From NCBI RefSeq assembly GCF_003334335.1, contig NZ_QOWQ01000002.1: a stretch of 64,000 bases of DNA; one strand, given 5' to 3'. Source of the DNA: Escherichia coli (GTDB taxonomy: Bacteria > Pseudomonadota > Gammaproteobacteria > Enterobacterales > Enterobacteriaceae). Below, one piece after another: positions 1,599 through 27,787 of the stretch (positions are counted from its first letter, which is position 1; the number at the start of each line of letters is the position of its first letter). The translations under genes were made by a program, and so were the position numbers. The notes under the pieces were generated by a model, which saw nothing but the letters and a program-made list of their open reading frames with translations, searched no databases and had not been told where the DNA came from.

Positions 1599-3188
1599 TC
1601 AGCTCAACGCCAGTAGCTGACGCGTATACTCCTGCTGCGGTGTGGCAAACACGCGCGCGCACGGTCCTTGTTCCACTACTTCCCCTTGTCGCAGTATGAT
1701 AACCTGATGACATAACGCGCGGACAACGTGCAAATCGTGGCTGATAAACAAATAGGCCAGTTGATGCTTTTGTTGCAATGATTTCAATAGCGTCAATATT
1801 TGCGCCTGTACCGTTTTGTCGAGTGATGATGTCGGTTCATCAAGTATGATCAGCGAGGGCTTAAGAATTAATGCCCTGGCAATCGCAATACGTTGTCGCT
1901 GACCACCAGAGAACTCCGCCGGATAACGGTGGCGTGTTTCAGGATCTAATCCCACTTCATGCATCACGGCTATCACTTGTTGTTCGCGTTGTGCGGCAGA
2001 AAGCGTCGGCTGGTGAACCCGTAAGCCTTCCTCAATAATCTGCAAAACGTTGAGTCGTGGGTTGAGCGAGGAGTTTGGATCCTGAAATACCACCTGAATG
2101 CGATGACGAATAGGTAACAGCTGGCGGCGATTTAAATTTTGCAGTGGCTGACCGTCAAAGATGATGCTGCCCTGAGAATTAATCAGTCGCAGCAGCGCCA
2201 GTCCCGTCGTACTTTTCCCGGAACCGGACTCGCCCACTAAACCCAGTGTTTCACCCGCTCGTAGCGTAAAACTGATGTTTTTCACCACCACATTATGATC
2301 CACAATGCGCTTCAAAATCCCTTTGCGAATGGGGAAGGCAACCTGAAGCTGTTCAACATCCAGCAACGTTGAGGCAGGTTCTGGCAACGGCACTGGATCG
2401 CCTGACGGTTCACTGTTGAGTAGCTTTTGTGTGTAAGGATGAGTGGGTGATGCAAATAGCGTAGCGGCGTAATTTTGCTCGACACAGCGACCGTTTTGCA
2501 TTACCGCCACGCGGTGGGCCAGTTTTCTGACAATGCTGAGGTTATGAGTAATAAACAGCATGCCCATATTCAGCTCGCCTTGCAGTTCGCGCAACAGCTG
2601 TAAAATCTGCGCCTGGACAGAGACGTCCAGTGCGGTGGTCGGTTCATCGGCAATTAATAATTCCGGTCGCGTTAACAGCGCCATCGCAATCATCACCCGC
2701 TGCCGTTCGCCGCCGGAGAGCTGATGCGGATAATCTGTCAGCCGTTTTGCCGCCTGGCGGATACCAACGCGATCAAGGCAGTTAAGAATTTCGCCACGAG
2801 CCGCTTCCCGACGCATCCCGCGGTGGAGTGAAAGCACTTCATAAAGCTGTTTTTCCAGGGTATGCAATGGATTTAACGACACCATCGGTTCCTGAAAAAT
2901 CATGGCGATCTTATTACCGCGTACACCGCGCAACGTTTGATCGCTGGCGTGAAGCAGCGATTCGCCATGAAAACGAATATCGCCGGAGAGATATTCAACC
3001 GGCGGGGAAGGGAGCAGGCGTAAAATTGACAGCGCGGTAACGCTTTTGCCTGAACCTGACTCACCCACCAGCGCCAGCGTTTCGCCAGCCTCAATCTGTA
3101 GTGAAACATCATTGACTACTGTACGTACGGTTTGCTGATGGCGAAAACCCACCGACAAATTTTCAATCGCTAACAGAGTTTGCGTCAT
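1599..3188 (-). CDS. yejF: ABC transporter ATPase with two fused ATP-binding domains (microcin C/oligopeptide uptake YejABEF)
   Basis: Two Walker A motifs (GESGSGKS twice) and two LSGGQ-like signatures in one ORF; ORF-track start 3236 trimmed to internal Met (MTQTLLAIENL) giving 529 aa. Confidence 0.92.
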   Translation of the reverse strand: MTQTLLAIENLSVGFRHQQTVRTVVNDVSLQIEAGETLALVGESGSGKSVTALSILRLLPSPPVEYLSGDIRFHGESLLHASDQTLRGVRGNKIAMIFQEPMVSLNPLHTLEKQLYEVLSLHRGMRREAARGEILNCLDRVGIRQAAKRLTDYPHQLSGGERQRVMIAMALLTRPELLIADEPTTALDVSVQAQILQLLRELQGELNMGMLFITHNLSIVRKLAHRVAVMQNGRCVEQNYAATLFASPTHPYTQKLLNSEPSGDPVPLPEPASTLLDVEQLQVAFPIRKGILKRIVDHNVVVKNISFTLRAGETLGLVGESGSGKSTTGLALLRLINSQGSIIFDGQPLQNLNRRQLLPIRHRIQVVFQDPNSSLNPRLNVLQIIEEGLRVHQPTLSAAQREQQVIAVMHEVGLDPETRHRYPAEFSGGQRQRIAIARALILKPSLIILDEPTSSLDKTVQAQILTLLKSLQQKHQLAYLFISHDLHVVRALCHQVIILRQGEVVEQGPCARVFATPQQEYTRQLLALS

Positions 3189-4215: not shown

Positions 4216-5309
4216 TAACGTCCCTCAAAATCAATACGCGGATCAACCAGCGTATAGCTGATATCACTGACAATATTCAGCAGCAGGCCAATCAGGGTGA
4301 AAATATACAAGGTACCAAACATTACAGGATAATCGCGCGAGACGGTCGCTTCGTAGCCCAGTAAGCCCAGACCATTGAGTGAAAACATCACCTCAATCAG
4401 CAGCGAGCCGGTAAAAAACATGCTGATAAACGTCGCCGGAAAACCGGCAATCACCAGCAGCATGGCGTTGCGGAACACATGTTTCCAGAGAATATTTTTT
4501 TCACTTACCCCTTTCGCACGCGCGGTCACCACGTATTGCTTGCGCACTTCATCAAGGAATGAGTTTTTTGTCAGCATGGTCAGCGCCGCAAAGCCACCAA
4601 TCACTGTCGCCAGCACCGGCAGCGTGATATGCCACAGATAATCGGTGATTTTCTGATACCACGGCAGCGAATCAAAGTTAGCGGAAACCAGGCCGCGTAG
4701 AGGGAACAGGTCGAAATAGCTGCCGCCCGCGAAGAAGACAATCAGCAGGATGGCAAACAAAAAGGCCGGAATGGCGTAGCCGATGATGATAAATGCGCTA
4801 CTCCAGACGTCAAAGCGGCTCCCATTATAAACAGCTTTGCGAATGCCTAACGGAATCGACACCAGATAGATAATCAGCGTGCTCCACAATCCGAGGGTGA
4901 TGGAAACCGGCAGACTGTCTTTAATCAGCGTCAGCACCGAGGCGCTGCGAAACAGGCTATCGCCAAAATCAAAGCGGATGTAGTCCCAGAGCATTTTGAA
5001 GTAACGTTCGTGGATCGGCTTATCAAAACCGTAGCGATGAGTGATCTCAGCGATCACTTCTGGATCTAATCCGCGTCCGCCACGGTAATTACTGTCGCTG
5101 ATATTGCCGACACCCGTTTGCGCATGGCTGGCACGAACACCTTCACCGCCTGCGCCGGGTAATACTCCGGCATTACCAAACTCAATGGCGGCGATGGCCT
5201 GGTCGACCGGACCGCCAGGCGCAATTTGCACGATGAAAAAGTTGATGGTGATAATCGCCCATAATGTTGGGATCACCAGCAACAGACGGCGAATCAGGTA
5301 AGCGCCCAT
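4215..5309 (-). CDS. yejB: ABC transporter permease (oligopeptide type)
   Basis: 364-aa membrane ORF adjacent to yejA stop; operon context. Confidence 0.92.
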
Positions 5310-7124
5310 CTACTCTCCCTGTTTGCTGGCGGACGGCAGTTTGGCCGCTTTATTGACGTCATACCACCAGGTATCGATACCGAGGCTATAGATGGGGCGC
5401 ACGGCCGGCTGGGAGAATTTATCCCACCAGGCGAGACGGTCTTCCGCCATGTACCACATTGGCAGCATGTAATAATTCCACGTTAATACGCGATCCAGTG
5501 CTCGCCCCAACGGCAGTAATTTTTCTTTATTTCCCTGCGCGGCAATAATTTGGTTGATCTGCGAGTCGATAACCGGGCTTTGCACGCCGGGGGCATTATA
5601 AGTGGAATTGATATATTCCGATGACCAGGAAATCTGTAAATCGGAACTGGGCCACGGCATCGCCCGCCATACGCGCGGCATCATGTCATAGTCGCGACTG
5701 CGCATGCGGTTAGTGATTTGCGAGTTATCCACCTTGCGAATGTCCATGTTGATACCCAGCCGTTGCAGGCTGTGCTGGAACGGCAATACCCACTGACTAT
5801 TGCTGCTTGCGGGAAGCAATAATTCAAAGCTGAGTGGCTGACCCGTTGTGGCATTAACGCGTTGCTGACCCTTCAGCACCCAGCCCGCTTCGTTGAGAAG
5901 TTTGTCGGCTTTTAACAGGTTGTCACGATCGTAGCCATCGCCTTTGGATACCGGCGGCTGGTAGATTTGTGTGAAGACTTCTGACGGTAGATCTTTTTTC
6001 ATTGGTGCCAGAAGCACCAGCTCCGCGGCGTCGGGGTAATTTCTGGCCGCGTATTCGGTATTCTGAAAATAACTGTTCGTGCGACTCCAGGCATTGTAAA
6101 ACAACGCCTTGTTCATCCATTCAAAGTCAAAGGCGAGAGTGATAGCTTCCCGGACCCGGCGATCGCTGAATACCGGACGTTGGATATTAAACGCCAGCCA
6201 ACGCGTATCCTGGGCTGATTCGTTCTTTTGCTCATCTTTGATGATGTATTTTTTATCGAAATTTTTACCGGTATAACGCGTGGCCCAGTTTTTGACGTCG
6301 TTTTCCATACGCAAATCAAAGGCACCTGCTTTAAACGCTTCAAAGGCGACATTATCATCGAGGTAATAATCGTAGCGAATGGTGTCGAAATTCCAGCGTC
6401 CACGGTTTACCGGTAAGTTTGCTGCCCAGTAATCTTTCACACGGGAATAGACAATATTTTGCCCCATTTTCCAGGACGTAACGCGGTACGGACCACTGGC
6501 AAGCGGAGGCGTGGCGAGCGGGTCGCTAAGTTTGTGATCCTTCCAGTACTTTTCTGGAAATACCGGCAGCGAAAACAGACTCAGCATATCTTCTTTGCCG
6601 GGTTTAGCTAACTCAATGCGCACGGTTAACGGTGCAATGGCTTTGACGGTGGTGCCTTTGTAGACCAGACGAAATTGCGGCACGCCTTCGGTCATAAATT
6701 TTTGAAAAGTAAACTCTACATCGCGGGCAGTAATGGGCGAACCATCATGAAAACGGGCGCGCGGATTAATAGCGACCTCCACCCAGGAATAATCGTCAGC
6801 ATAGCGTGCGCTTTCAGCAATCAGCGGGTAATAACTGCCTGGTTCGTCATCGGAAGTCGTAAATAGCGTGTCGTACAGCTGCTCGGTGCGTGCGCCCGGG
6901 TTGCCGCGCAGTGCATAGCGGTTGAAATTATCGAAGGTGCCGAGGGCTGACAACGTTATCTGCCCACCTTTTGGCGCGGCGGGGTTCACATAATCAAAAT
7001 GGTTGAAATTAAACGCGTACCGGGGTTCGCCCAGCACGGCAAAGGCATAGCTTTCCTTGATAGCCTGCGCCTGCACACCAAAGGTGAACAGAGCGATAAA
7101 CAGCAGCAGTATGCGCACAATCAT
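5310..7124 (-). CDS. yejA: Periplasmic oligopeptide/microcin C-binding protein of the YejABEF ABC transporter
   Basis: About 604-aa ORF with N-terminal signal peptide ([16 protein letters not shown]); start trimmed by two codons from ORF track. Confidence 0.92.
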
Positions 7125-7205: not shown

Positions 7206-8762
7206 TTACCACTGCGGCGTATACGGTTTCTTTAGCCAGCGAACAAAATCGTCCAGCGGTAACGGGCGGCTAATCCAGTAGCCTTGCATGAAATTAACGC
7301 CGCGTTCGCTTAGCCATCGCGCCTGTTCCGGCGTTTCGACCCCTTCAGCAACCGTCAGCATATTGAGGCGTTTCGCCAGCGTCAGCACCGCGTCAAGTAC
7401 GGGGGAAGTGATCGTTTCCGTACCGATGGCGTTGATAAATCCACGGTCAATTTTCAGATAATCGAGCGTAAAACGCTCAAGATAGATAAGCGCGCTGTGC
7501 CCGGTGCCGAAGTCATCAATAGCAATTTCTACGCCGACCGAGTGCAGCCAGGCGAAGAGTTGTGTGGCTTCTTGCTCTTTCAACATATCGCGCTCGGTAA
7601 TTTCCAGCACAATCTGGAAATGGTGTGCGGGCAGGGAAGTGAGCAGTTTCTGGATATCTGCTTTAAAGCTTTCGCTGTGCAGATGGTCCGGCGCAATGTT
7701 AATACCAAATTTGACGCCTACCGGCAGCACTTTTTCTAATTCTGCGGCATCGCGGGCAATTAACTCAAACAGGTGCTGAGTCAGCGGCACAATCATCTTT
7801 TGCGATTCGGCAAAGTTAATGAAGGCATCCGGGGGAATTTCTCCCGCGACAGGATGCCGCCAGCGTAGCAGTACTTCCAGGCCCGTTACTCGCAAAGCTT
7901 GTGTATCCACCACCGGTTGATACGCCACGTAAAATTGTTCGCGCTTGATGGCGGTCATGATTTCTCTGCCGGGGCGCATACGTACGCTCATCAGGTAATA
8001 GCAGAGCAGGCCAACGACAGTTCCACTCATGCCGCCCAGTAAAAATGCGTACCACACATCGTTCCATGTCCAGTCATCTGCATAAAGCCGAACGGTCAGA
8101 GGAATGCCCGCAATTTTAGTTTCACGGACTGGCATGTCGGTTAATTCGTTAACGTTCATCAAACGTGAAGAAAAGGTAGATAGCGCAGTATTGCCAATAA
8201 TGAGGGCGACGCCATCGTAATCTTCCTGCCGTGAACTATAAAAGAGTGAAGGCGTCAGGTTGAGATTCAGAGCGGCAAAGACGCCGCTATTTTTCAGCAA
8301 AGGGTTGCGATACCAGATGACGATTGCGGGTTTGTTCGGCACCATCGGCGTGCCGGGTAAGATCGCCATATCGACGTTTTTATTAATGTCGAGCGCCGGA
8401 ATCAATTCATTGAGTGGAATGTCCATCTCACCGGTCGCAGATGAACAGAATGTTTTTTTATCTTTCACCAGCACAAACGTTCGGACATTCATGCTAAACG
8501 CTGCGCGGGCGGTCAGTTCGGGGTTAGCTTGCTGGCAGGTATCTAAGGTCAGCGGCTGGAGCCGGTCAGTAGTGGATTTCAGGTCGGCAAAATAGGTATC
8601 GAGATACTTTTGTACGTCGGTAATCAGTGTGTCGTATTTGACTTCGTGCTTATGCCAGGCCACTAAAAACTGAAGGCAACTCACCAGTATCGCAATCATT
8701 ACGCCTGCAACAATGCAGGTAAGCAGGAGCTTACGTCCAAAATTGGGAGCGCGTATGAACAT
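7206..8762 (-). CDS. pdeN: c-di-GMP phosphodiesterase, membrane-anchored EAL-domain protein
   Basis: 518-aa ORF with N-terminal TM segment and C-terminal EAL domain signature (EVLLRW...EITE...DDFGTG). Confidence 0.9.
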   Translation of the reverse strand: MFIRAPNFGRKLLLTCIVAGVMIAILVSCLQFLVAWHKHEVKYDTLITDVQKYLDTYFADLKSTTDRLQPLTLDTCQQANPELTARAAFSMNVRTFVLVKDKKTFCSSATGEMDIPLNELIPALDINKNVDMAILPGTPMVPNKPAIVIWYRNPLLKNSGVFAALNLNLTPSLFYSSRQEDYDGVALIIGNTALSTFSSRLMNVNELTDMPVRETKIAGIPLTVRLYADDWTWNDVWYAFLLGGMSGTVVGLLCYYLMSVRMRPGREIMTAIKREQFYVAYQPVVDTQALRVTGLEVLLRWRHPVAGEIPPDAFINFAESQKMIVPLTQHLFELIARDAAELEKVLPVGVKFGINIAPDHLHSESFKADIQKLLTSLPAHHFQIVLEITERDMLKEQEATQLFAWLHSVGVEIAIDDFGTGHSALIYLERFTLDYLKIDRGFINAIGTETITSPVLDAVLTLAKRLNMLTVAEGVETPEQARWLSERGVNFMQGYWISRPLPLDDFVRWLKKPYTPQW

Positions 8763-18077: not shown

Positions 18078-19769
18078 ATGAAAACGCTGCTGATTATTGA
18101 CGCTAATCTCGGTCAGGCACGCGCCTATATGGCGAAGACCCTGCTGGGCGCGGCGGCGCGAAAAGCAAAACTGGAAATCATCGACAATCCGAACGACGCT
18201 GAAATGGCGATTGTTCTCGGTGATTCCATCCCGAACGACAGCGCGCTGAACGGTAAAAATGTCTGGCTGGGCGATATTTCCCGGGCAGTTGCGCACCCTG
18301 AGCTGTTCCTGAGTGAAGCCAAAGGCCATGCGAAACCTTACACTGCGCCGGTCGCTGCGACAGCACCAGTTGCCGCCAGCGGTCCGAAACGCGTAGTTGC
18401 GGTGACTGCTTGCCCGACTGGCGTAGCACACACCTTTATGGCGGCTGAAGCCATTGAAACCGAAGCGAAAAAACGTGGCTGGTGGGTGAAAGTTGAAACC
18501 CGTGGTTCTGTTGGCGCGGGTAATGCAATCACTCCCGAAGAAGTCGCAGCAGCGGATCTGGTGATTGTGGCGGCAGATATCGAAGTGGATCTGGCGAAAT
18601 TTGCTGGTAAACCGATGTATCGTACCTCTACCGGTCTGGCGCTGAAGAAAACCGCGCAGGAACTGGATAAAGCGGTTGCTGAAGCAACGCCGTATGAACC
18701 GGCGGGCAAAGCTCAAACGGCGACCACTGAAAGTAAGAAAGAGAGTGCAGGCGCATACCGTCACTTGCTGACGGGCGTTTCTTACATGCTGCCGATGGTC
18801 GTTGCAGGTGGTCTGTGTATCGCGCTTTCTTTTGCTTTTGGTATCGAAGCGTTTAAAGAGCCGGGTACGTTGGCTGCGGCGCTGATGCAGATTGGTGGTG
18901 GTTCAGCCTTTGCGCTGATGGTGCCGGTACTGGCAGGTTATATTGCCTTTTCCATTGCCGATCGTCCGGGCCTCACTCCGGGTCTGATTGGCGGTATGCT
19001 GGCGGTCAGCACCGGTTCTGGCTTCATTGGTGGTATTATTGCGGGCTTCCTGGCTGGTTACATTGCGAAGTTAATCAGTACGCAATTGAAACTGCCACAG
19101 AGTATGGAGGCGCTGAAACCGATCCTGATCATTCCGCTAATTTCCAGTCTGGTGGTCGGTCTGGCGATGATCTACCTGATCGGTAAACCAGTTGCTGGCA
19201 TTCTCGAAGGGCTGACTCACTGGCTGCAGACCATGGGGACTGCGAATGCGGTTCTGCTGGGGGCGATCCTCGGTGGCATGATGTGTACTGACATGGGCGG
19301 TCCGGTAAACAAAGCAGCGTACGCATTCGGTGTGGGTCTGCTGAGTACTCAAACCTATGGCCCGATGGCGGCGATTATGGCGGCAGGTATGGTGCCACCG
19401 CTGGCAATGGGTCTGGCAACAATGGTGGCGCGTCGCAAATTCGACAAAGCGCAGCAGGAAGGTGGCAAAGCCGCTCTGGTATTGGGACTGTGCTTCATTT
19501 CGGAAGGTGCAATTCCGTTTGCTGCTCGTGATCCGATGCGTGTGCTGCCGTGCTGTATCGTGGGTGGGGCGCTGACTGGCGCAATCTCAATGGCGATTGG
19601 TGCGAAACTGATGGCACCGCACGGTGGTCTGTTTGTTCTGCTGATCCCTGGCGCTATTACGCCGGTATTGGGTTACCTAGTAGCAATTATTGCCGGTACG
19701 CTGGTGGCGGGTTTGGCCTATGCCTTCCTGAAACGTCCGGAAGTGGACGCAGTAGCGAAAGCAGCGTAA
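18078..19769 (+). CDS. fruA: Fructose-specific PTS IIB'BC component
   Basis: 563-aa ORF with IIB Cys motif (VTACPTGVAHTFMAAE) and polytopic IIC domain; terminator downstream. Confidence 0.95.
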   Translation: MKTLLIIDANLGQARAYMAKTLLGAAARKAKLEIIDNPNDAEMAIVLGDSIPNDSALNGKNVWLGDISRAVAHPELFLSEAKGHAKPYTAPVAATAPVAASGPKRVVAVTACPTGVAHTFMAAEAIETEAKKRGWWVKVETRGSVGAGNAITPEEVAAADLVIVAADIEVDLAKFAGKPMYRTSTGLALKKTAQELDKAVAEATPYEPAGKAQTATTESKKESAGAYRHLLTGVSYMLPMVVAGGLCIALSFAFGIEAFKEPGTLAAALMQIGGGSAFALMVPVLAGYIAFSIADRPGLTPGLIGGMLAVSTGSGFIGGIIAGFLAGYIAKLISTQLKLPQSMEALKPILIIPLISSLVVGLAMIYLIGKPVAGILEGLTHWLQTMGTANAVLLGAILGGMMCTDMGGPVNKAAYAFGVGLLSTQTYGPMAAIMAAGMVPPLAMGLATMVARRKFDKAQQEGGKAALVLGLCFISEGAIPFAARDPMRVLPCCIVGGALTGAISMAIGAKLMAPHGGLFVLLIPGAITPVLGYLVAIIAGTLVAGLAYAFLKRPEVDAVAKAA

Positions 19770-19926
19770 TAAAAGGTGTGTTACAGGGCAGAAATTTCCT
19801 GTCCTGTAACATTTGATGAGCGCAAAGAGAATGACCGGTTTGTGAATGTAATTTTATGAATTTAAATGGTTTTATCTTTCAGTAGAAACTTCAAACGTTC
19901 ATCAAACACTCAGGTTATTTCCTCAA

Positions 19927-19955
19927 GGGCAGATTATTTTCTGCCCTTTTTTATT
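19927..19955 (+). terminator. Rho-independent terminator of the fruBKA operon
   Basis: gggcag / ctgccc stem followed by a 9-nt T run. Confidence 0.85.
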
Positions 19956-20191
19956 GTTCTGTTCTGTGCATCCCGTCACAAATTCCTCGCTTTTGTAATT
20001 CAGGCATTTAATCGCATTTTGTGAGCCTGCTCAAATCTGCCCATTTTGCCTCTCTGGCGGTAATTTACTTTACGTAAAACATGCATACTATGAGCACATG
20101 TTTAAATATGAACACATGTTTAAACCGTCTTTGCAGTATCTATATTCTTGTGGATTGACAGGGTTGGTAATTTTTTACCAGAGGACGTGCT

Positions 20192-21133
20192 ATGCGCGAA
20201 AAGGATTATGTCGTAATTATAGGTTCGGCGAATATTGATGTCGCCGGATATTCACATGAATCATTAAATTATGCGGATTCAAATCCAGGTAAAATAAAAT
20301 TTACGCCTGGTGGAGTAGGGCGCAATATTGCACAAAACCTGGCGTTGCTGGGTAACAAAGCCTGGCTACTGAGCGCCGTAGGCAGTGATTTTTATGGTCA
20401 ATCGCTGCTAACGCAAACCAATCAATCTGGCGTTTATGTCGATAAATGCCTGATTGTGCCGGGAGAAAATACGTCGAGTTATTTATCATTACTCGATAAT
20501 ACCGGTGAAATGCTGGTTGCTATAAATGACATGAATATTAGCAACGCTATTACAGCTGAATATCTCGCACAGCACGGTGAATTTATTCAGAGGGCAAAGG
20601 TCATTGTCGCGGACTGTAATATCAGTGAAGAGGCACTGGCATGGATTCTGGATAATGCCGCCAACGTACCCGTATTTGTCGATCCGGTTTCGGCATGGAA
20701 ATGTGTCAAAGTGCGCGACCGTCTAAATCAGATCCACACTCTCAAGCCAAACCGCCTTGAAGCGGAAACCCTGAGTGGGATTGCGCTGTCAGGGCGTGAA
20801 GATGTGGCAAAAGTTGCTGCCTGGTTCCATCAACATGGCCTGAACCGACTGGTATTGAGCATGGGCGGCGACGGCGTTTATTACAGCGATATCAGCGGTG
20901 AAAGTGGCTGGTCTGCGCCGATCAAAACCAATGTTATTAATGTTACCGGAGCGGGCGATGCCATGATGGCGGGACTTGCTTCGTGTTGGGTAGACGGAAT
21001 GCCGTTTGCCGAATCTGTTCGTTTCGCACAGGGATGTTCGTCAATGGCGCTCTCCTGTGAATACACCAATAACCCCGATTTATCGATTGCCAACGTTATA
21101 TCGTTAGTGGAGAACGCAGAATGTCTGAATTAA
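20192..21133 (+). CDS. psuK: Pseudouridine kinase, PfkB family
   Basis: 313-aa PfkB-type kinase ORF; overlaps psuG start by 13 nt. Confidence 0.9.
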   Translation: MREKDYVVIIGSANIDVAGYSHESLNYADSNPGKIKFTPGGVGRNIAQNLALLGNKAWLLSAVGSDFYGQSLLTQTNQSGVYVDKCLIVPGENTSSYLSLLDNTGEMLVAINDMNISNAITAEYLAQHGEFIQRAKVIVADCNISEEALAWILDNAANVPVFVDPVSAWKCVKVRDRLNQIHTLKPNRLEAETLSGIALSGREDVAKVAAWFHQHGLNRLVLSMGGDGVYYSDISGESGWSAPIKTNVINVTGAGDAMMAGLASCWVDGMPFAESVRFAQGCSSMALSCEYTNNPDLSIANVISLVENAECLN

Positions 21134-22059
21134 AAATTTCCCCTGAATTATTACAAATTTCCCCGGAAGTGCAGGACGCTTTAAAAAACAAAAAACCGGT
21201 TGTGGCGCTGGAATCGACCATTATTTCTCACGGGATGCCGTTCCCACAAAATGCCCAGACCGCAATTGAAGTTGAAGAAACTATTCGTAAACAGGGCGCT
21301 GTACCTGCCACGATCGCCATTATTGGCGGCGTGATGAAAGTGGGGTTAAGCAAAGAAGAAATTGAATTACTGGGTCGTGAAGGGCATAACGTGACCAAAG
21401 TTAGTCGTCGCGATTTACCTTTTGTTGTTGCCGCCGGAAAAAATGGCGCAACCACTGTGGCTTCAACGATGATTATTGCGGCGCTTGCCGGAATTAAAGT
21501 ATTTGCCACCGGGGGAATTGGTGGTGTGCATCGCGGGGCGGAACATACCTTCGATATTTCTGCCGATTTGCAAGAACTGGCAAATACTAATGTCACCGTT
21601 GTTTGTGCCGGGGCGAAATCTATTCTCGATTTAGGATTAACCACTGAGTATTTAGAAACCTTCGGTGTGCCGTTAATTGGCTATCAGACTAAAGCGCTGC
21701 CTGCGTTTTTCTGCCGCACCAGCCCGTTTGACGTCAGCATTCGTCTCGACAGCGCCAGCGAAATTGCCCGTGCAATGGCGGTGAAATGGCAAAGCGGTCT
21801 GAACGGTGGCCTCGTGGTAGCGAACCCGATCCCGGAACAGTTTGCTATGCCGGAACACACTATCAATGCGGCGATCGATCAGGCGGTAGCTGAAGCTGAA
21901 GCTCAGGGAGTCATTGGTAAAGAAAGTACGCCATTCCTGCTGGCGCGCGTTGCTGAACTGACCGGCGGTGACAGCCTGAAATCCAACATCCAGCTGGTGT
22001 TCAACAACGCCATTCTGGCGAGCGAAATTGCCAAAGAATATCAGCGTCTCGCGGGTTAA
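21121..22059 (+). CDS. psuG: Pseudouridine-5'-phosphate glycosidase
   Basis: 312-aa ORF; operon position between psuK and psuT. Confidence 0.9.
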   Translation: MSELKISPELLQISPEVQDALKNKKPVVALESTIISHGMPFPQNAQTAIEVEETIRKQGAVPATIAIIGGVMKVGLSKEEIELLGREGHNVTKVSRRDLPFVVAAGKNGATTVASTMIIAALAGIKVFATGGIGGVHRGAEHTFDISADLQELANTNVTVVCAGAKSILDLGLTTEYLETFGVPLIGYQTKALPAFFCRTSPFDVSIRLDSASEIARAMAVKWQSGLNGGLVVANPIPEQFAMPEHTINAAIDQAVAEAEAQGVIGKESTPFLLARVAELTGGDSLKSNIQLVFNNAILASEIAKEYQRLAG

Positions 22060-22152
22060 TTTCTGACGGGCAGAAAGCCGTCGCCCGTACTCATCAAGCA
22101 TACCAAAACCTGGCGCTGACGCCGGGTTTACCGGCATGAAGGGAAAATCATT

Positions 22153-23402
22153 ATGGATATAATGAGAAGTGTTGTGGGGATGGTGGTGTTACTGGCAATA
22201 GCATTTCTGTTGTCAGTGAATAAAAAGAGCATCAGTTTGCGCACGGTTGGAGCCGCACTGCTGCTGCAAATCGCTATTGGTGGCATCATGCTCTACTTCC
22301 CACCGGGAAAATGGGCAGTAGAACAGGCGGCATTAGGCGTTCATAAAGTGATGTCTTACAGTGATGCCGGTAGCGCCTTCATTTTTGGTTCGCTGGTTGG
22401 GCCGAAAATGGATGTCCTGTTTGACGGTGCGGGTTTTATCTTCGCCTTTCGCGTACTTCCGGCGATTATTTTCGTTACTGCGCTCATCAGTCTGCTGTAC
22501 TACATTGGCGTGATGGGGCTGCTGATTCGCATCCTTGGCAGCATTTTCCAGAAAGCCCTCAACATCAGCAAAATCGAATCTTTTGTTGCGGTTACTACTA
22601 TTTTCCTCGGGCAAAATGAGATCCCGGCGATCGTTAAACCGTTTATCGATCGCATGAATCGCAACGAGTTGTTTACCGCAATTTGTAGCGGGATGGCGTC
22701 CATTGCTGGTTCGATGATGATTGGTTATGCCGGAATGGGCGTACCAATTGACTACCTGTTAGCGGCATCGCTGATGGCGATCCCTGGCGGGATTTTGTTT
22801 GCACGTATTCTTAGCCCGGCAACCGAGCCTTCGCAGGTCACATTTGAAAATCTGTCGTTCAGCGAAACGCCGCCAAAAAGCTTTATCGAAGCGGCGGCGA
22901 GCGGTGCGATGACCGGGCTAAAAATCGCCGCGGTGTGGCGACGGTGGTAATGGCGTTTGTCGCAATTATTGCGCTGATCAACGGCATTATCGGCGGAATT
23001 GGCGGCTGGTTTGGTTTCGCCAATGCCTCTCTGGAAAGTATTTTTGGCTATGTGCTGGCACCGCTGGCGTGGATCATGGGTGTGGACTGGAGTGATGCCA
23101 ATCTTGCGGGTAGCCTGATTGGGCAGAAACTGGCGATTAACGAATTCGTCGCTTACCTGAGTTTCTCCCCATACCTGCAAACGGGCGGCACGCTGGAAGT
23201 GAAAACCATTGCGATTATCTCCTTTGCGCTTTGTGGTTTTGCTAACTTTGGTTCTATCGGTGTTGTCGTTGGCGCATTTTCGGCTATTTCGCCAAAACGC
23301 GCGCCGGAAATCGCCCAGCTTGGTTTACGGGCGCTGGCAGCAGCAACGCTTTCCAACCTGATGAGTGCGACTATTGCCGGGTTCTTTATTGGTCTGGCGT
23401 AA
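22153..23402 (+). pseudogene. psuT: NupC-family nucleoside (pseudouridine) transporter, disrupted by a -1 frameshift near 22927-22934
   Basis: Two consecutive ORFs (22153..22950 and 22935..23402) together align along the full length of the intact 416-aa paralogue NupX; frame changes at gccgcggtg where NupX has gccgcaggtg. Confidence 0.8.
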
Positions 23403-23412
23403 TGCTCGATTT

Positions 23413-23455
23413 GTAGACCGGATAAAACGTATTAAGCGTTGCATCCGGCAATCGC
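23413..23455. repeat. REP (repetitive extragenic palindrome) downstream of psuT
   Basis: tgtagaccggataaaacg...gcatccggca, REP consensus-like. Confidence 0.7.
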
Positions 23456-23472
23456 GCTATTGAAAATAATTT

Positions 23473-24132
23473 TTACTGCATCATCCCGGAGAATTTATTC
23501 TCCGGGTCCATCTCCAGCGCCAGTCCTGACAACTGCTTTCTGTTTTTAATGAGATACCCTTTCTTGCTTTTAATTAATAAACCGTCGTGAATGAACTGCG
23601 CGAGAACATATAAAAGATGTCGATAAGAAACGCCTAAATACTCTGCCGCTTGCGTATGCTTTTCGTGATAAAGATCACCTTCCTGCGAGAGTAATATAAA
23701 TGCTGCCAGGCGATTCACTAACGGAAATGATTGATTCTGAGTTAAAGAAACAATATTACGATAATTTTTATGACTTAAGGTGACGCAGAGTTTTCGTAAA
23801 AATAGCGTGTCGTTTAATAACAGCGGACGGTAATGTTTCATAGGGAGCGCAAGGCACCAACACTCTTCAATAGCCTGCACCGCACGCGGTTCATGGTCTT
23901 TATCGATTAACTCAATCTCGCCAATAAAACAGGGGGCGGCAAAGAAATCGATCAGCGACACGCGACCATTAGCTAGCGTGGCGTAAAGCCTGGCGCGGCC
24001 TCGCGTCAGGTAAAACAGCCAGGACGGCTGTTGCCCTTCCTGCACAATGTAGTCACGCGCTAAAAAATGAAACAGCCGCGTATCGGCTGAAACATCCGTT
24101 AAAAAGCAATCCTTAAACGCGGATTCACTCAT
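23473..24132 (-). CDS. yeiL: Crp/Fnr-family transcriptional regulator
   Basis: 219-aa product from internal Met ([10 protein letters not shown]) with C-terminal HTH typical of Crp/Fnr. Confidence 0.85.
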
Positions 24133-24300
24133 CAATTGCTGCTTAAGATCATTATTGTGGATTTCTTTCACGATGTTTATCCGCTATGAGATTTCTCATA
24201 TTTAGCATACGTACGCTGTTGTTAAGATTCAATCATCGGCCCGGTCGAATTTTCTTTGCTGTAGAAAAAATAACGCAACTGGAAACAGAGGAAATAAACA

Positions 24301-25242
24301 ATGGAAAAGAGAAAAATTATTCTGGATTGTGATCCGGGTCATGATGATGCTATTGCTATAATGATGGCGGCGAAACATCCGGCAATAGATTTATTAGGCA
24401 TCACTATTGTAGCGGGTAATCAGACGCTTGATAAAACATTAATTAATGGCCTGAATGTTTGCCAGAAACTGGAGATTAATGTTCCGGTTTATGCGGGGAT
24501 GCCGCAGCCCATTATGCGTCAACAAATCGTTGCCGATAATATTCACGGTGAAACCGGACTGGATGGCCCGGTATTCGAGCCGCTGACCCGCCAGGCAGAA
24601 AGCACTCATGCGGTGAAATATATCATTGATACCCTGATGGCAAGCGATGGCGATATCACTCTGGTGCCGGTTGGTCCGCTTTCAAATATCGCGGTGGCAA
24701 TGCGTATGCAACCCGCGATCCTGCCCAAAATCCGTGAAATTGTGCTAATGGGCGGCGCTTACGGTACAGGCAACTTCACGCCATCTGCCGAGTTCAACAT
24801 CTTTGCCGACCCGGAAGCCGCACGCGTAGTGTTCACCTCCGGCGTTCCATTAGTGATGATGGGCCTCGATCTCACCAACCAGACCGTTTGCACCCCGGAC
24901 GTGATTGCTCGGATGGAAAGGGCAGGCGGCCCCGCCGGAGAGCTGTTCAGCGACATCATGAACTTCACTCTCAAAACGCAGTTCGAAAACTACGGCCTTG
25001 CTGGCGGCCCGGTGCACGACGCCACCTGCATCGGTTATCTGATTAACCCTGATGGCATTAAAACCCAGGAGATGTACGTCGAAGTGGACGTCAACAGTGG
25101 CCCTTGCTATGGGCGTACCGTCTGCGACGAGCTGGGCGTTCTTGGCAAGCCCGCCAATACCAAAGTCGGCATCACTATTGATACAGACTGGTTCTGGGGA
25201 TTAGTCGAAGAGTGCGTGCGCGGCTACATCAAAACCCATTAA
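24301..25242 (+). CDS. rihB: Pyrimidine-specific ribonucleoside hydrolase
   Basis: 313-aa ORF with N-terminal DxDxxxDD nucleoside hydrolase motif ([12 protein letters not shown]). Confidence 0.93.
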
Positions 25243-25341
25243 GTGTTGATAACAAGCCGGGCCGGTATCGCAAGATGCAGGCCTGGCTATTTCTGATGGG
25301 CAGAAAGCCGTCGCCCAATATGACATGAAGAGATAATCACT

Positions 25342-26592
25342 ATGGATGTCATGAGAAGTGTTCTGGGAATGGTGGTATTGCTGACGATTGCGTTTTTACT
25401 GTCAGTAAACAAGAAGAAGATCAGCCTGCGTACCGTTGGCGCGGCGTTAGTGTTACAGGTCGTGATTGGCGGCATTATGCTTTGGTTACCGCCAGGGCGT
25501 TGGGTCGCTGAAAAAGTCGCTTTTGGCGTGCATAAAGTGATGGCGTACAGCGACGCGGGTAGCGCATTTATCTTCGGTTCTCTGGTCGGACCGAAAATGG
25601 ATACCTTATTTGATGGTGCAGGATTTATCTTTGGTTTCAGGGTGTTACCGGCAATTATCTTCGTCACCGCGCTGGTGAGTATTCTCTACTACATCGGTGT
25701 GATGGGGATTTTAATTCGAATTCTCGGCGGTATCTTCCAGAAAGCATTAAATATCAGCAAGATCGAGTCATTCGTCGCGGTCACCACCATTTTCCTCGGG
25801 CAAAACGAAATTCCGGCAATCGTCAAACCCTTTATCGATCGTCTGAATCGCAATGAATTATTTACAGCGATTTGTAGTGGCATGGCCTCGATTGCTGGTT
25901 CGACAATGATTGGTTACGCCGCACTGGGCGTGCCTGTGGAATATCTGCTGGCGGCATCATTAATGGCGATCCCTGGCGGGATCTTGTTTGCCCGCCTGTT
26001 AAGCCCGGCAACGGAATCTTCGCAGGTTTCCTTTAATAACCTCTCTTTCACCGAAACACCGCCAAAAAGCATTATTGAAGCCGCTGCGACAGGGGCAATG
26101 ACCGGGCTGAAAATCGCCGCAGGTGTGGCAACAGTGGTGATGGCATTTGTTGCAATAATTGCGTTGATTAACGGTATTATCGGCGGCGTTGGTGGCTGGT
26201 TTGGTTTTGAACATGCCTCGCTGGAGTCCATTTTAGGTTACCTGCTGGCTCCACTGGCGTGGGTGATGGGTGTGGACTGGAGTGATGCGAATCTTGCCGG
26301 GAGTTTGATTGGACAGAAACTGGCAATAAATGAATTTGTCGCTTATCTCAATTTCTCACCCTATCTGCAAACGGCTGGCACTCTCGATGCTAAAACTGTG
26401 GCGATTATTTCCTTCGCGTTGTGCGGTTTCGCTAACTTTGGTTCTATCGGGGTGGTGGTGGGGGCGTTTTCTGCGGTTGCGCCACACCGTGCGCCGGAAA
26501 TCGCCCAGCTTGGTTTACGGGCGCTGGCGGCGGCGACGCTTTCCAACTTGATGAGTGCGACCATTGCCGGGTTCTTTATTGGTTTAGCTTGA
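25342..26592 (+). CDS. nupX: NupC-family nucleoside transporter
   Basis: Intact 416-aa polytopic membrane ORF; close paralogue of psuT. Confidence 0.92.
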   Translation: MDVMRSVLGMVVLLTIAFLLSVNKKKISLRTVGAALVLQVVIGGIMLWLPPGRWVAEKVAFGVHKVMAYSDAGSAFIFGSLVGPKMDTLFDGAGFIFGFRVLPAIIFVTALVSILYYIGVMGILIRILGGIFQKALNISKIESFVAVTTIFLGQNEIPAIVKPFIDRLNRNELFTAICSGMASIAGSTMIGYAALGVPVEYLLAASLMAIPGGILFARLLSPATESSQVSFNNLSFTETPPKSIIEAAATGAMTGLKIAAGVATVVMAFVAIIALINGIIGGVGGWFGFEHASLESILGYLLAPLAWVMGVDWSDANLAGSLIGQKLAINEFVAYLNFSPYLQTAGTLDAKTVAIISFALCGFANFGSIGVVVGAFSAVAPHRAPEIAQLGLRALAAATLSNLMSATIAGFFIGLA

Positions 26593-26599
26593 GTGTCAT

Positions 26600-26694
26600 T
26601 GCCTGATGCGCAAGCTTATCAGGCCTACATTTACTTGCTGAAATTGCCTGATTTGTAGGCCGGATAAGACGCGTTAAGCGTCGCATCCGGCAAC
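26600..26694. repeat. REP pair (BIME-like) between nupX and yeiI
   Basis: gcctgatgcgcaagcttatcaggcctaca and tgtaggccggataagacgcgttaagcgtcgcatccggc. Confidence 0.75.
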
Positions 26695-26698
26695 ATTG

Positions 26699-27787
26699 TT
26701 ACACCATTGGCACTAATGAAAGCGCGTTATCGGCAGACAGGGTAGGGTTGTTTAAGCTGCCGCTGGCGCGCGAAATTGCCGCGCAGGCTACCGCAAAACG
26801 GGCGCTGTCGCGGAAACTGTATCCTTCAAGAAAGCTATATACCAGGCCCGCCATAAAACCATCGTCAGCACCAAAACTGTCTACTGTCGTATGCGCTGGC
26901 GCGGTCAGCAAAAATTGTTCTCCATCCTTTTCGCTGCAATAAACTGACTCATCGGGCAAATAAACAAACAGTTGCTGAACACCTTGCTGATGCAATGCAT
27001 TCACTGCGGTATTACGGTCAGCATCGCTGGTGATCGCCTGTCCCCATAAAATTTCCAGCTCCGGTAAAGTGGGTTTCAGGGTGTGAATATGCGCCAGCCA
27101 GTGTTTGATTTTGCCCGCTTTGAATTCTGAAACGGTATCGACAAACACCGGGATTTCATCAGCGAGGGTAAAGACCCATTCCAGCGCCTCGGCTGTCAGG
27201 TTGCAATCAGCCAGTACCACGCCCGCATGACGAAGTAAATCGCGCGACCCGTTCAGTAGTTGCGGTGTCAACTGTTCCAGCAGATGGGTATCGTTAATCG
27301 CCAGCACGGTTTGATCGTCTCGATTGGCAATTGCCAGATACGTCGATGTGCTTTGACCATGCAAACGAACGCAGCCGGAGACATTCACGCCGGCACGGCG
27401 CGTTTCTTCCAGGAGCATTTCGCCATAAAAGTCATCGCCAATCACTGAAAGCAAATGGACGTCACGGCCTAACAGCGCCAGATTGTGGGCGATGTTGCGT
27501 CCCACGCCGCCCGCTGAGCAATGAATTGTACCGGGATGAGAAGCCGATTGCGGGTAACGGATATCCGCCATCCCGCGAATATCCATATTGATTGTCCCCA
27601 CCACTACGCAGTATTCCTGCTCGGTGAGAATGTAACCTTTGCCTTTAATCCGGCCTTTGCGCATTAAATCCATAATATGCGCCGCAACGCGCGAACGGCT
27701 GATTTGCAGCATGTCCGCAATTTCGTTCTGCTGAATCAGCGGGTTACGCCGTAAAATTGCAAGGATCTCCTTTTCCCGGTTATTCAT
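26699..27787 (-). CDS. yeiI: Sugar/nucleoside kinase (PfkB family) with N-terminal winged-helix HTH domain
   Basis: 362-aa ORF; N-terminal HTH (EILAILRRNPLIQQNEIADMLQISRSRV) fused to a PfkB domain that aligns by eye with PsuK (GGVGRNIA.NLALLG). Confidence 0.88.
   Translation of the reverse strand: MNNREKEILAILRRNPLIQQNEIADMLQISRSRVAAHIMDLMRKGRIKGKGYILTEQEYCVVVGTINMDIRGMADIRYPQSASHPGTIHCSAGGVGRNIAHNLALLGRDVHLLSVIGDDFYGEMLLEETRRAGVNVSGCVRLHGQSTSTYLAIANRDDQTVLAINDTHLLEQLTPQLLNGSRDLLRHAGVVLADCNLTAEALEWVFTLADEIPVFVDTVSEFKAGKIKHWLAHIHTLKPTLPELEILWGQAITSDADRNTAVNALHQQGVQQLFVYLPDESVYCSEKDGEQFLLTAPAHTTVDSFGADDGFMAGLVYSFLEGYSFRDSARFAVACAAISRASGSLNNPTLSADNALSLVPMV

Follow-up and report, generated by a model that had tools for sequence, protein, structure and literature searches.

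In Escherichia coli, 5'-terminal stem-loops protect mRNAs from RNase E, and hairpins between cistrons give rise to segmental stability of a message. The ompA 5' hairpin, the processing site of papBA and the malE-malF intercistronic hairpin are the closest described systems for the element reported here, a small RNA hairpin that we call P1 and that lies upstream of each of two paralogous transporter genes, psuT and nupX, in a 64,000-nt stretch of E. coli DNA (contig NZ_QOWQ01000002.1 of assembly GCF_003334335.1; this whole stretch is called the window and is numbered from its first letter). Like these stability hairpins, P1 is small and G+C-rich, has no U-tract and is situated between an upstream gene and a gene for a membrane protein; it is usually preceded by an A/U-rich single strand, and its stem is kept while the sequence turns over. 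It differs from them in that the sequence of the 3' half of its loop is conserved, for which those elements have no need. The malE-malF hairpin moreover is a repetitive extragenic palindromic (REP) repeat, whereas P1 has only two copies per genome. Whereas the paralogy of the two genes and gene conversion between them are ordinary, the new part is a small candidate leader RNA element with covariation support, of which no description was found in Rfam or in the literature searched.

The two genes (psuT, 22153-23402; nupX, 25342-26592; both on the plus strand) are each preceded by a shared 26-nt motif. The pattern TTCTGAYGGGCAGAAAGCCGTCGCCC has exactly two matches in the window, at 22061-22086 and 25291-25316, with none expected from 100 shuffles of the window even if three mismatches are allowed. 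An earlier annotation made from the letters of the window without database searches (the sequence-only reading) had placed the psuT copy correctly and the nupX copy one base off, at 25290-25315. It had also described both copies as lying just downstream of the preceding stop codon. This is true of psuG (stop codon at 22057-22059), where the motif starts 2 nt further on, but not of rihB (stop codon at 25240-25242), where it starts 48 nt past the stop with a separate strong hairpin (25255-25288) in between. The same reading had asked whether the motif occurs at many unrelated loci and whether it is conserved upstream of orthologous psuT and nupX genes. It is confined to psuT and nupX: a 31-nt query containing the motif was found in 5,425 of the 5,426 complete E. 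coli genomes, at a median of 2 and a maximum of 3 places per genome. Upstream of the orthologs it is conserved in other Escherichia, and other genera have a diverged version of it. Among 100,044 species genomes, each species being represented once, the 19-nt core of the motif occurs in E. coli, E. albertii, E. whittamii and two further Escherichia species, always upstream of psuT or nupX and with 1-2 copies per species genome. Another 13 isolated matches in unrelated genomes show no similarity in their flanks; their number fits the handful of chance matches estimated beforehand for a degenerate 19-mer in a collection of this size.

A covariance model of P1 likewise gave two significant matches only in the window, scoring 42.3 bits for the psuT copy and 38.7 bits for the nupX copy, and no extra copies in the promoter regions of psuK, rihB and yeiL. 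The next match was the terminator hairpin of fruA at 19920-19953 (AAGGGCAGATTATTTTCTGCCCTT followed by a T-run; 13.3 bits, E ~0.09), probably a chance likeness through GGGCAG/CTGCCC. With about two places per E. coli genome, a generic or dispersed repeat, REP elements and bacterial interspersed mosaic elements (BIMEs) included, is ruled out. P1 resembles REP/BIME sequences as an extragenic G+C-rich palindrome near E. coli gene ends, and genuine REPs occur downstream of both psuT and nupX; it differs in copy number (about 2 versus hundreds), in having no similarity to the REP sequence and in its place upstream of the transporter genes.

The psuT copy of P1 (22066-22088, plus strand) has a stem formed by 22066-22071 and 22083-22088 (ACGGGC/GCCCGU) and an 11-nt loop (22072-22082); the nupX copy (25297-25317, plus strand) has the stem UGGGC/GCCCA and an identical loop. 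Both were delimited with RNAfold and the covariance model. For the psuT copy RNAfold predicts (A)CGGGC-A-GA[AAGCCG]UC-GCCCG(U) at -11.1 kcal/mol, not a GACGG/CCGTC helix. Within the motif the copies differ at one position, where psuT has C and nupX has T. Its partner, which lies just beyond the motif, is G and A, respectively, so that the stem is closed by C-G in psuT and by U-A in nupX. Across genera the consensus is YGGGC-AGnnnGCGGUC-GCCCR, with a fixed length of 21 nt, a stem of 5-6 bp and an 11-nt loop. The 3' half of the loop (GCGGUC) is conserved and the 5' half is not; U21 is invariant, and G17 and G20 are among the conserved bases.

Covariation was assessed on 27 distinct sequences with 500 shuffles as control. 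Standard pairs fill 96.3% of the stem cells, and compensatory changes are found in three of the six stem pairs: pair 7-27 is CG in 16 sequences, UA in 6 and UG in 4, with one mismatch, pair 8-26 is GC in 25 and AU in 2, and pair 6-28 is AU in 12, GC in 7 and GU in 3. The covariation score was equalled in 0 of the 500 shuffles, a control that overstates significance since many rows of the alignment are related. When the register of the alignment is slid, pairing drops to 33-56%. A 21-sequence set agrees with these results and RNAalifold predicts the same six pairs. The flanks directly beside P1 diverge between genera while the hairpin is kept, and between the two copies 25 of the 26 motif positions are identical against a neutral expectation of 50% (P ~ 4e-7). 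P1 is thus a structurally selected hairpin of the sense-strand RNA. Selection acts on this RNA and not on duplex DNA or antisense RNA, because a G·U pair would read as an A·C mismatch in the complementary strand. The GACGG/CCGTC hairpin proposed in the sequence-only reading is possible in E. coli, but the comparison supports another pairing, (A)YGGGC/GCCCR(U). Of the cells of the proposed hairpin 77% are paired, but 381 of 500 shuffles reach its covariation, and its central pair does not hold outside Escherichia, being disrupted in 13 of 21 sequences. A further candidate, UUUCUG/CAGAAA, fits E. coli but is paired to 66% overall and is essentially specific to Escherichia.

The loci used for this comparison were picked by protein identity and synteny, not by the motif, and came from Leclercia, Enterobacter, Salmonella, Citrobacter, two Klebsiella species, Buttiauxella, Kluyvera, Dryocola, Entomohabitans and one further enterobacterium. 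A hairpin of exactly 21 nt was found at the matching place in the upstream spacer of every transporter gene of the clade that was sampled, with one exception, and after psuG or rihB alike; in all, P1 precedes psuT- and nupX-type genes in about 12 enterobacterial genera. Further P1 variants were supplied by a metagenome scan that was anchored on P2, a second hairpin of psuT-type leaders discussed below, and hence blind to P1; these metagenomic leaders likewise carry the 21-nt P1. The exception is the psuT leader of Entomohabitans (retrieved locus 596-709), which has an unrelated hairpin with a stem of ca. 13 bp, GCGCTGTTCCCGG...CCGGGAAACAGCGC, at the place of P1 and keeps the downstream linker motif ATATCAGGCATAC. 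Both paralogs, each with its P1, are present in Citrobacter, Kluyvera and Enterobacter, and Entomohabitans also has both paralogs. P1 travels with the transporter gene, whether psuG or rihB is upstream. Its distance to the start codon ranges from 25 to 68 nt, and because of this variation P1 does not cover the ribosome-binding site. Its spacing from the upstream stop codon is variable too; in psuT-type loci P1 starts 5-12 nt past the psuG stop.

The rest of the leader is less uniform than P1. In psuT-type leaders, and in the nupX leaders of Klebsiella, P1 is followed by a C/A-rich linker (AUAUCAaACAUACCAAAA), by P2 and by a conserved Shine-Dalgarno/start region, with a mean column identity of 82% over 18 leaders. 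In the window the linker ACUCAUCAAGCAUACCA occupies 22089-22105 (plus strand); it was delimited by cross-genus alignment and is unpaired in the consensus fold. P2, AAACCUGGCG-CUGA-CGCCGGGUUU, follows at 22106-22129 (plus strand; RNAfold -16.8 kcal/mol, z = -2.7) and has a nearly invariant 9-bp consensus helix in the 18 leaders, with almost no covariation. P2 is like intrinsic terminators and attenuators in its stem of 9-10 bp, its upstream A-tract, the 3-4 U that follow and its position between an enzyme and a transporter cistron. It differs from them in the shortness of the U-tract, and the terminator scan did not flag it. P1 lacks a U-tract altogether, is followed by GUACUCAU in psuT or AAUAUGAC in nupX and is missing from the same scan, and was rejected as an intrinsic terminator. 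P2 is absent from the nupX-type leaders of Salmonella, Citrobacter, Buttiauxella, Kluyvera and Escherichia. Most Escherichia nupX leaders have lost the linker too, which places the end of P1 25 nt ahead of the AUG; in E. coli K-12 just 7 nt separate P1 from the Shine-Dalgarno region of nupX. A divergent E. coli nupX allele, that of SCPM-O-B-8794 (92-93% identical to K-12; retrieved locus 7656-7692), keeps a linker of ca. 15 nt, TAACGGGATCAGACC, like those of Salmonella and Citrobacter.

Apart from Entomohabitans psuT, P1 is the one component kept throughout the sampled leaders. The psuT-type and nupX-type leaders are homologous from P1 onwards and share nothing that lies upstream of it. P1 thus marks where the ancestral duplicated unit starts on the left and is at the same time under constraint. 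The suggestion that the motif is simply the left edge of a duplicated segment was correct in that homology does start at the hairpin, but it misses that the hairpin is under structural selection. The separate G+C-rich hairpin just after rihB (25255-25288, plus strand, followed by AUUUCU; from a fold of 25243-25355) is probably a 3' hairpin of rihB or a weak terminator. Separate hairpins after rihB are predicted in Escherichia, Salmonella, Citrobacter, Kluyvera, Leclercia and Dryocola as well; they evolve fast and their sequences are unrelated between genera.

We consider these observations best explained, at a probability of roughly 0.55, by the following scheme. The genes psuT and nupX are old paralogs of one CNT clade in a tandem region, derived from a duplicated unit that began at P1, and each copy has kept P1. 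Short-tract gene conversion between the paralogs, which are 3.2 kb apart, homogenised the last ca. 100 nt of the genes and probably the P1 core (see below). P1 itself would be a stem-loop, intercistronic or in the 5' leader, by which the fate of the transporter segment of the psuKG-psuT and rihB-nupX transcripts is decided. The A/U-rich single-stranded stretch that usually precedes it is a plausible RNase E site, and cleavage there would leave P1 as the protective 5' terminus of the transporter message. In psuT-type leaders the weak terminator-like P2 may act alongside P1 by limiting read-through into the membrane-protein gene. We infer this role in mRNA processing or stability from the known effects of E. 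coli stem-loops on RNase E and on segmental stability. Several points weigh against the scheme. The 3' half of the loop is as conserved as the stem, which a structural barrier does not need and which hints at sequence-specific recognition. The variable distances from P1 to the start codon and to the upstream stop do not separate a 5' role from a 3' role. The literature and the supplements of Term-seq and transcription start site studies that were searched list no transcript end, small RNA or regulator at either spacer. The relatedness of the rows mentioned above lowers the weight of the covariation test, and for the conversion part, 19 nt cannot prove conversion, since identical loops could be parallel change under a shared trans-acting factor. 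Little is understood of the two transporter genes that P1 precedes, and psuT is now being engineered for the production of pseudouridine. If P1 indeed controls mRNA stability or read-through, this would explain a transporter level that differs from that of the upstream catabolic enzyme, and P1 would be a simple part to mutate in strain engineering.

The main rival is that P1, the C/A-rich linker and P2 together form a cis-regulatory leader specific to this clade, in which a nucleoside-type ligand or an RNA-binding protein gates read-through or translation of the transporter gene. Transporter genes are typical riboswitch targets. The 82% column identity of psuT-type leaders across genera exceeds the 50% third-codon identity of the E. 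coli paralogs, the linker is conserved, some loop bases of P1 are invariant or nearly so, and P2 with its A-tract and short U-tract resembles an intrinsic terminator. We nevertheless regard such a sensor or protein-binding leader as improbable: inspection of the alignment revealed no alternative, anti-terminator pairing of P1 with P2, covariation is nearly lacking in P2, and nupX-type leaders do without P2, the one of K-12 being reduced to P1 plus 7 nt. The element is also very small, it has no Rfam match, and Entomohabitans psuT has exchanged P1 for an unrelated hairpin. The other explanations are less likely. Somewhat behind in probability comes a role for the upstream gene, with P1 as a 3' hairpin that protects the psuKG and rihB messages from 3'-to-5' exonucleases or as a weak terminator for them. 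Hairpins lacking a U-tract are common exonuclease barriers at gene ends in enterobacteria, P1 starts very close to the psuG stop codon in psuT-type loci, and it is intact downstream of rihB where nupX is internally deleted; that lineage is, however, too recent for decay of P1 to be informative. P1 is moreover tied to the transporter gene whatever precedes it, and the homology of the paralog leaders starts at P1. Most rihB-nupX spacers that were folded already have a separate hairpin directly after rihB, which speaks for a role of P1 in the downstream cistron.

Two further explanations are very unlikely. The motif might be functionless, a neutral left edge of the duplicated segment that was kept alike by conversion or by recent duplication. 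Paralog homology does begin at the motif, conversion clearly operates between the genes and the Escherichia copies share an identical loop that differs from that of most other genera. Set against this are the fixed-length hairpin at both paralogs in about 12 genera, its 96% pairing with three of six pairs compensated between diverging flanks, and the 25 of 26 identical positions (P ~ 4e-7); conversion alone cannot explain the conservation between genera. With as little probability, P1 could be a palindromic operator of double-stranded DNA at an internal promoter of the transporter gene, for example for the CRP/FNR-type YeiL or for YeiI, a kinase with a helix-turn-helix (HTH) domain. GGGC-N11-GCCC forms an inverted repeat, in all loci seen yeiL and yeiI keep their synteny with the transporter genes, and a genomic SELEX (systematic evolution of ligands by exponential enrichment) study lists a site for the RpoS holoenzyme within psuG that faces psuT (PMC5493296). 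Yet the promoter scan found no sigma-70-like hexamers beside either motif copy, and the promoter regions of psuK, rihB and yeiL gave no additional match to the covariance model. Loop conservation is asymmetric, being confined to the 3' half, and stem complementarity is kept through G·U pairs, which are meaningless in duplex DNA; the element does not behave as an operator.

Other readings of the spacers were also examined. When 19500-27500 was scanned with cmscan against Rfam 15 (E <= 5), neither 22061-22093 nor 25291-25323 was matched, and the only matches were weak ones to the REP-derived family naRNA4 downstream of the genes. A pairing of P1 with P2 as an anti-terminator was rejected as it amounts to 4-6 bp only and is not conserved, and by inspection there is no alternative pairing of P1 with P2 or with the Shine-Dalgarno region; the conserved loop bases and the linker are present. 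Targeting of the C/A-rich linker by GcvB was discarded after a crude test, in which duplex energies with GcvB R1 were like those of mononucleotide shuffles (z -0.3 to +0.7). In E. coli and Citrobacter the spacer continues the frame of psuG, with read-through peptides that are alike, but a coding role was rejected, as spacers of 95 nt in Klebsiella michiganensis and 89 nt in Leclercia disrupt that frame and the variation shows no codon periodicity. An upstream open reading frame of 8 codons, ATGAAGGGAAAATCATTATGGATATAA (22136-22162), overlaps the psuT start and is found in the psuT leaders of Escherichia, Citrobacter and Kluyvera; it is absent from those of Klebsiella and Enterobacter, was not retained as a conserved feature and is probably incidental to the Shine-Dalgarno region.

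The likeness of psuT and nupX is greatest at their 3' ends. The sequence-only reading had called the last ca. 100 nt nearly identical and proposed gene conversion or a recent segmental duplication. Identity is indeed elevated, but over the last 102 nt it amounts to 91%, with 9 differences and a longest exact run of 38 nt. The tract covers 23292-23396 in psuT (ca. coding positions 1141-1245) and 26482-26586 in nupX, both on the plus strand; in this comparison windows of 60 nt are 90-93% identical, and the sequences cluster by genus. Identity at third codon positions is 82% in the last 34 codons versus 50% in the rest of the gene (binomial P ~ 9e-5). In the final 90-nt window the identity of the E. 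coli paralogs to each other is 0.91, compared with 0.83 (psuT) and 0.76 (nupX) to the Citrobacter orthologs. Over the last 110 nt all Escherichia psuT and nupX sequences are mutually 88-94% identical and group by genus rather than by ortholog, E. coli nupX being 76% identical to the nupX of Salmonella or Citrobacter. Because of this grouping we place the Escherichia tract before the split of E. albertii. Within other genera the 3' ends of the paralogs are also alike, with identities of 0.96 in Citrobacter, 0.88 in Entomohabitans and 0.87 in Kluyvera. Conversion is much more extensive in Citrobacter, where it extends over a large part of the gene's distal half; within the last ca. 550 nt of its psuT and nupX (retrieved locus 1848-3098 versus 5001-6251) several windows of 90 nt are 91-97% identical.

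This pattern indicates recurrent gene conversion at the 3' ends of psuT and nupX, and the earlier proposal of conversion is borne out by the rise at third codon positions and by the genus-wise grouping. A recent duplication is contradicted by the presence of both paralogs in Citrobacter, Kluyvera, Enterobacter and Entomohabitans and by the 50% third-codon identity of the gene body. Judged from this synonymous saturation and from the several genera that hold both genes, the duplication itself is old. The tufA/tufB genes of enterobacteria provide a known case of concerted evolution of nearby paralogs by gene conversion. As there, segments of psuT and nupX within a genome are closer to each other than to their orthologs, and this recurs independently in several genera. 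The psuT/nupX tracts differ in being short and partial, in genes that are 79% identical overall and that encode functionally different proteins (PMC11241209). A practical caution is that the 3' ends do not reveal which psuT and nupX genes are orthologous. The two P1 copies of Escherichia have an identical 19-nt core and differ only in the closing pair, with a loop unlike that of most other genera, whereas 5 of 21 positions differ between the two copies of Citrobacter and likewise between those of Kluyvera; a short conversion tract over the P1 core probably also explains the likeness of the Escherichia copies.

The protein encoded by nupX has 416 amino acids and belongs to the CNT/NupC family. 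Its near-twin in the database (417 aa; 100% identity over 416 aligned residues) contains the domains PF01773, PF07670 and PF07662, and the same domains, Nucleos_tra2_N (PF01773), Gate (PF07670) and Nucleos_tra2_C (PF07662), are found in 88%-identical clusters of E. coli PsuT. Both genes thus encode nucleoside transporters of the CNT/NupC family, as the sequence-only reading had recognised and in line with the literature, in which the CNT paralogy of psuT and nupX is already published (PMC11241209). According to that work NupX transports uridine and cytidine weakly, and no activity was detected for PsuT (PMC11241209). Local alignment of the gene regions gave 79% DNA identity over 1,260 columns. 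At the protein level the identity is 88% once a frameshift in psuT is repaired, in agreement with the 85-90% previously estimated by eye.

This frameshift had been overlooked in the sequence-only reading. A 1-nt deletion near 22931 (22926-22935) makes psuT read GCCGCGGTG where other E. coli have GCCGCGGGTG; it is evident from the split of the gene into two open reading frames (22153-22950 and 22935-23402) and from the local alignment with nupX. A 9,001-nt query around the deletion aligns to 9,002 nt at ca. 100% identity in many genomes, and none of the 5,426 complete E. coli genomes shares the deletion, because of which we regard it as a private mutation or a sequencing error.

Upstream of psuT lie psuK (20192-21133) and psuG (21121-22059, plus strand), the latter encoding pseudouridine-5'-phosphate glycosidase; nupX is preceded by rihB (24301-25242, plus strand), which encodes a pyrimidine ribonucleoside hydrolase. 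The genes of the region carry the same annotation in matching E. coli genomes and in MG1655. The gene yeiL lies on the minus strand within the same region. The arrangement of the cluster varies by genus: yeiL-rihB-nupX may occur alone, psuKGT may occur alone, or psuKGT is found downstream of nupX, as in Enterobacter. Where the HTH-kinase gene yeiI is present, it is mostly convergent and follows whichever transporter gene is last.

Some E. coli strains are rearranged around nupX. The rihB-nupX spacer of E. coli ETEC4071 (retrieved locus 1558-2266) carries an IS200C insertion at the 5' margin of the nupX motif; the junction, GGCTATTT / IS200C / ATTCTGATGGGC, is a few bases upstream of the P1 stem, and both the stem and nupX are intact. 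In others, such as FDAARGOS_144 (retrieved locus 308-420), nupX is internally deleted, ca. 66 nt of its 5' end being joined to ca. 50 nt of its 3' end; the P1 stem of these strains is intact, with one substitution in the loop and one in the flank. Past the stop codons of the two transporter genes, similarity is accounted for by REP-type palindromes, located at 23416-23476 downstream of psuT and at 26658-26705 downstream of nupX, which gave weak matches to the REP-derived Rfam family naRNA4 on both strands. The Term-seq and transcription start site supplements list one antisense site of nupX, near its 3' end.

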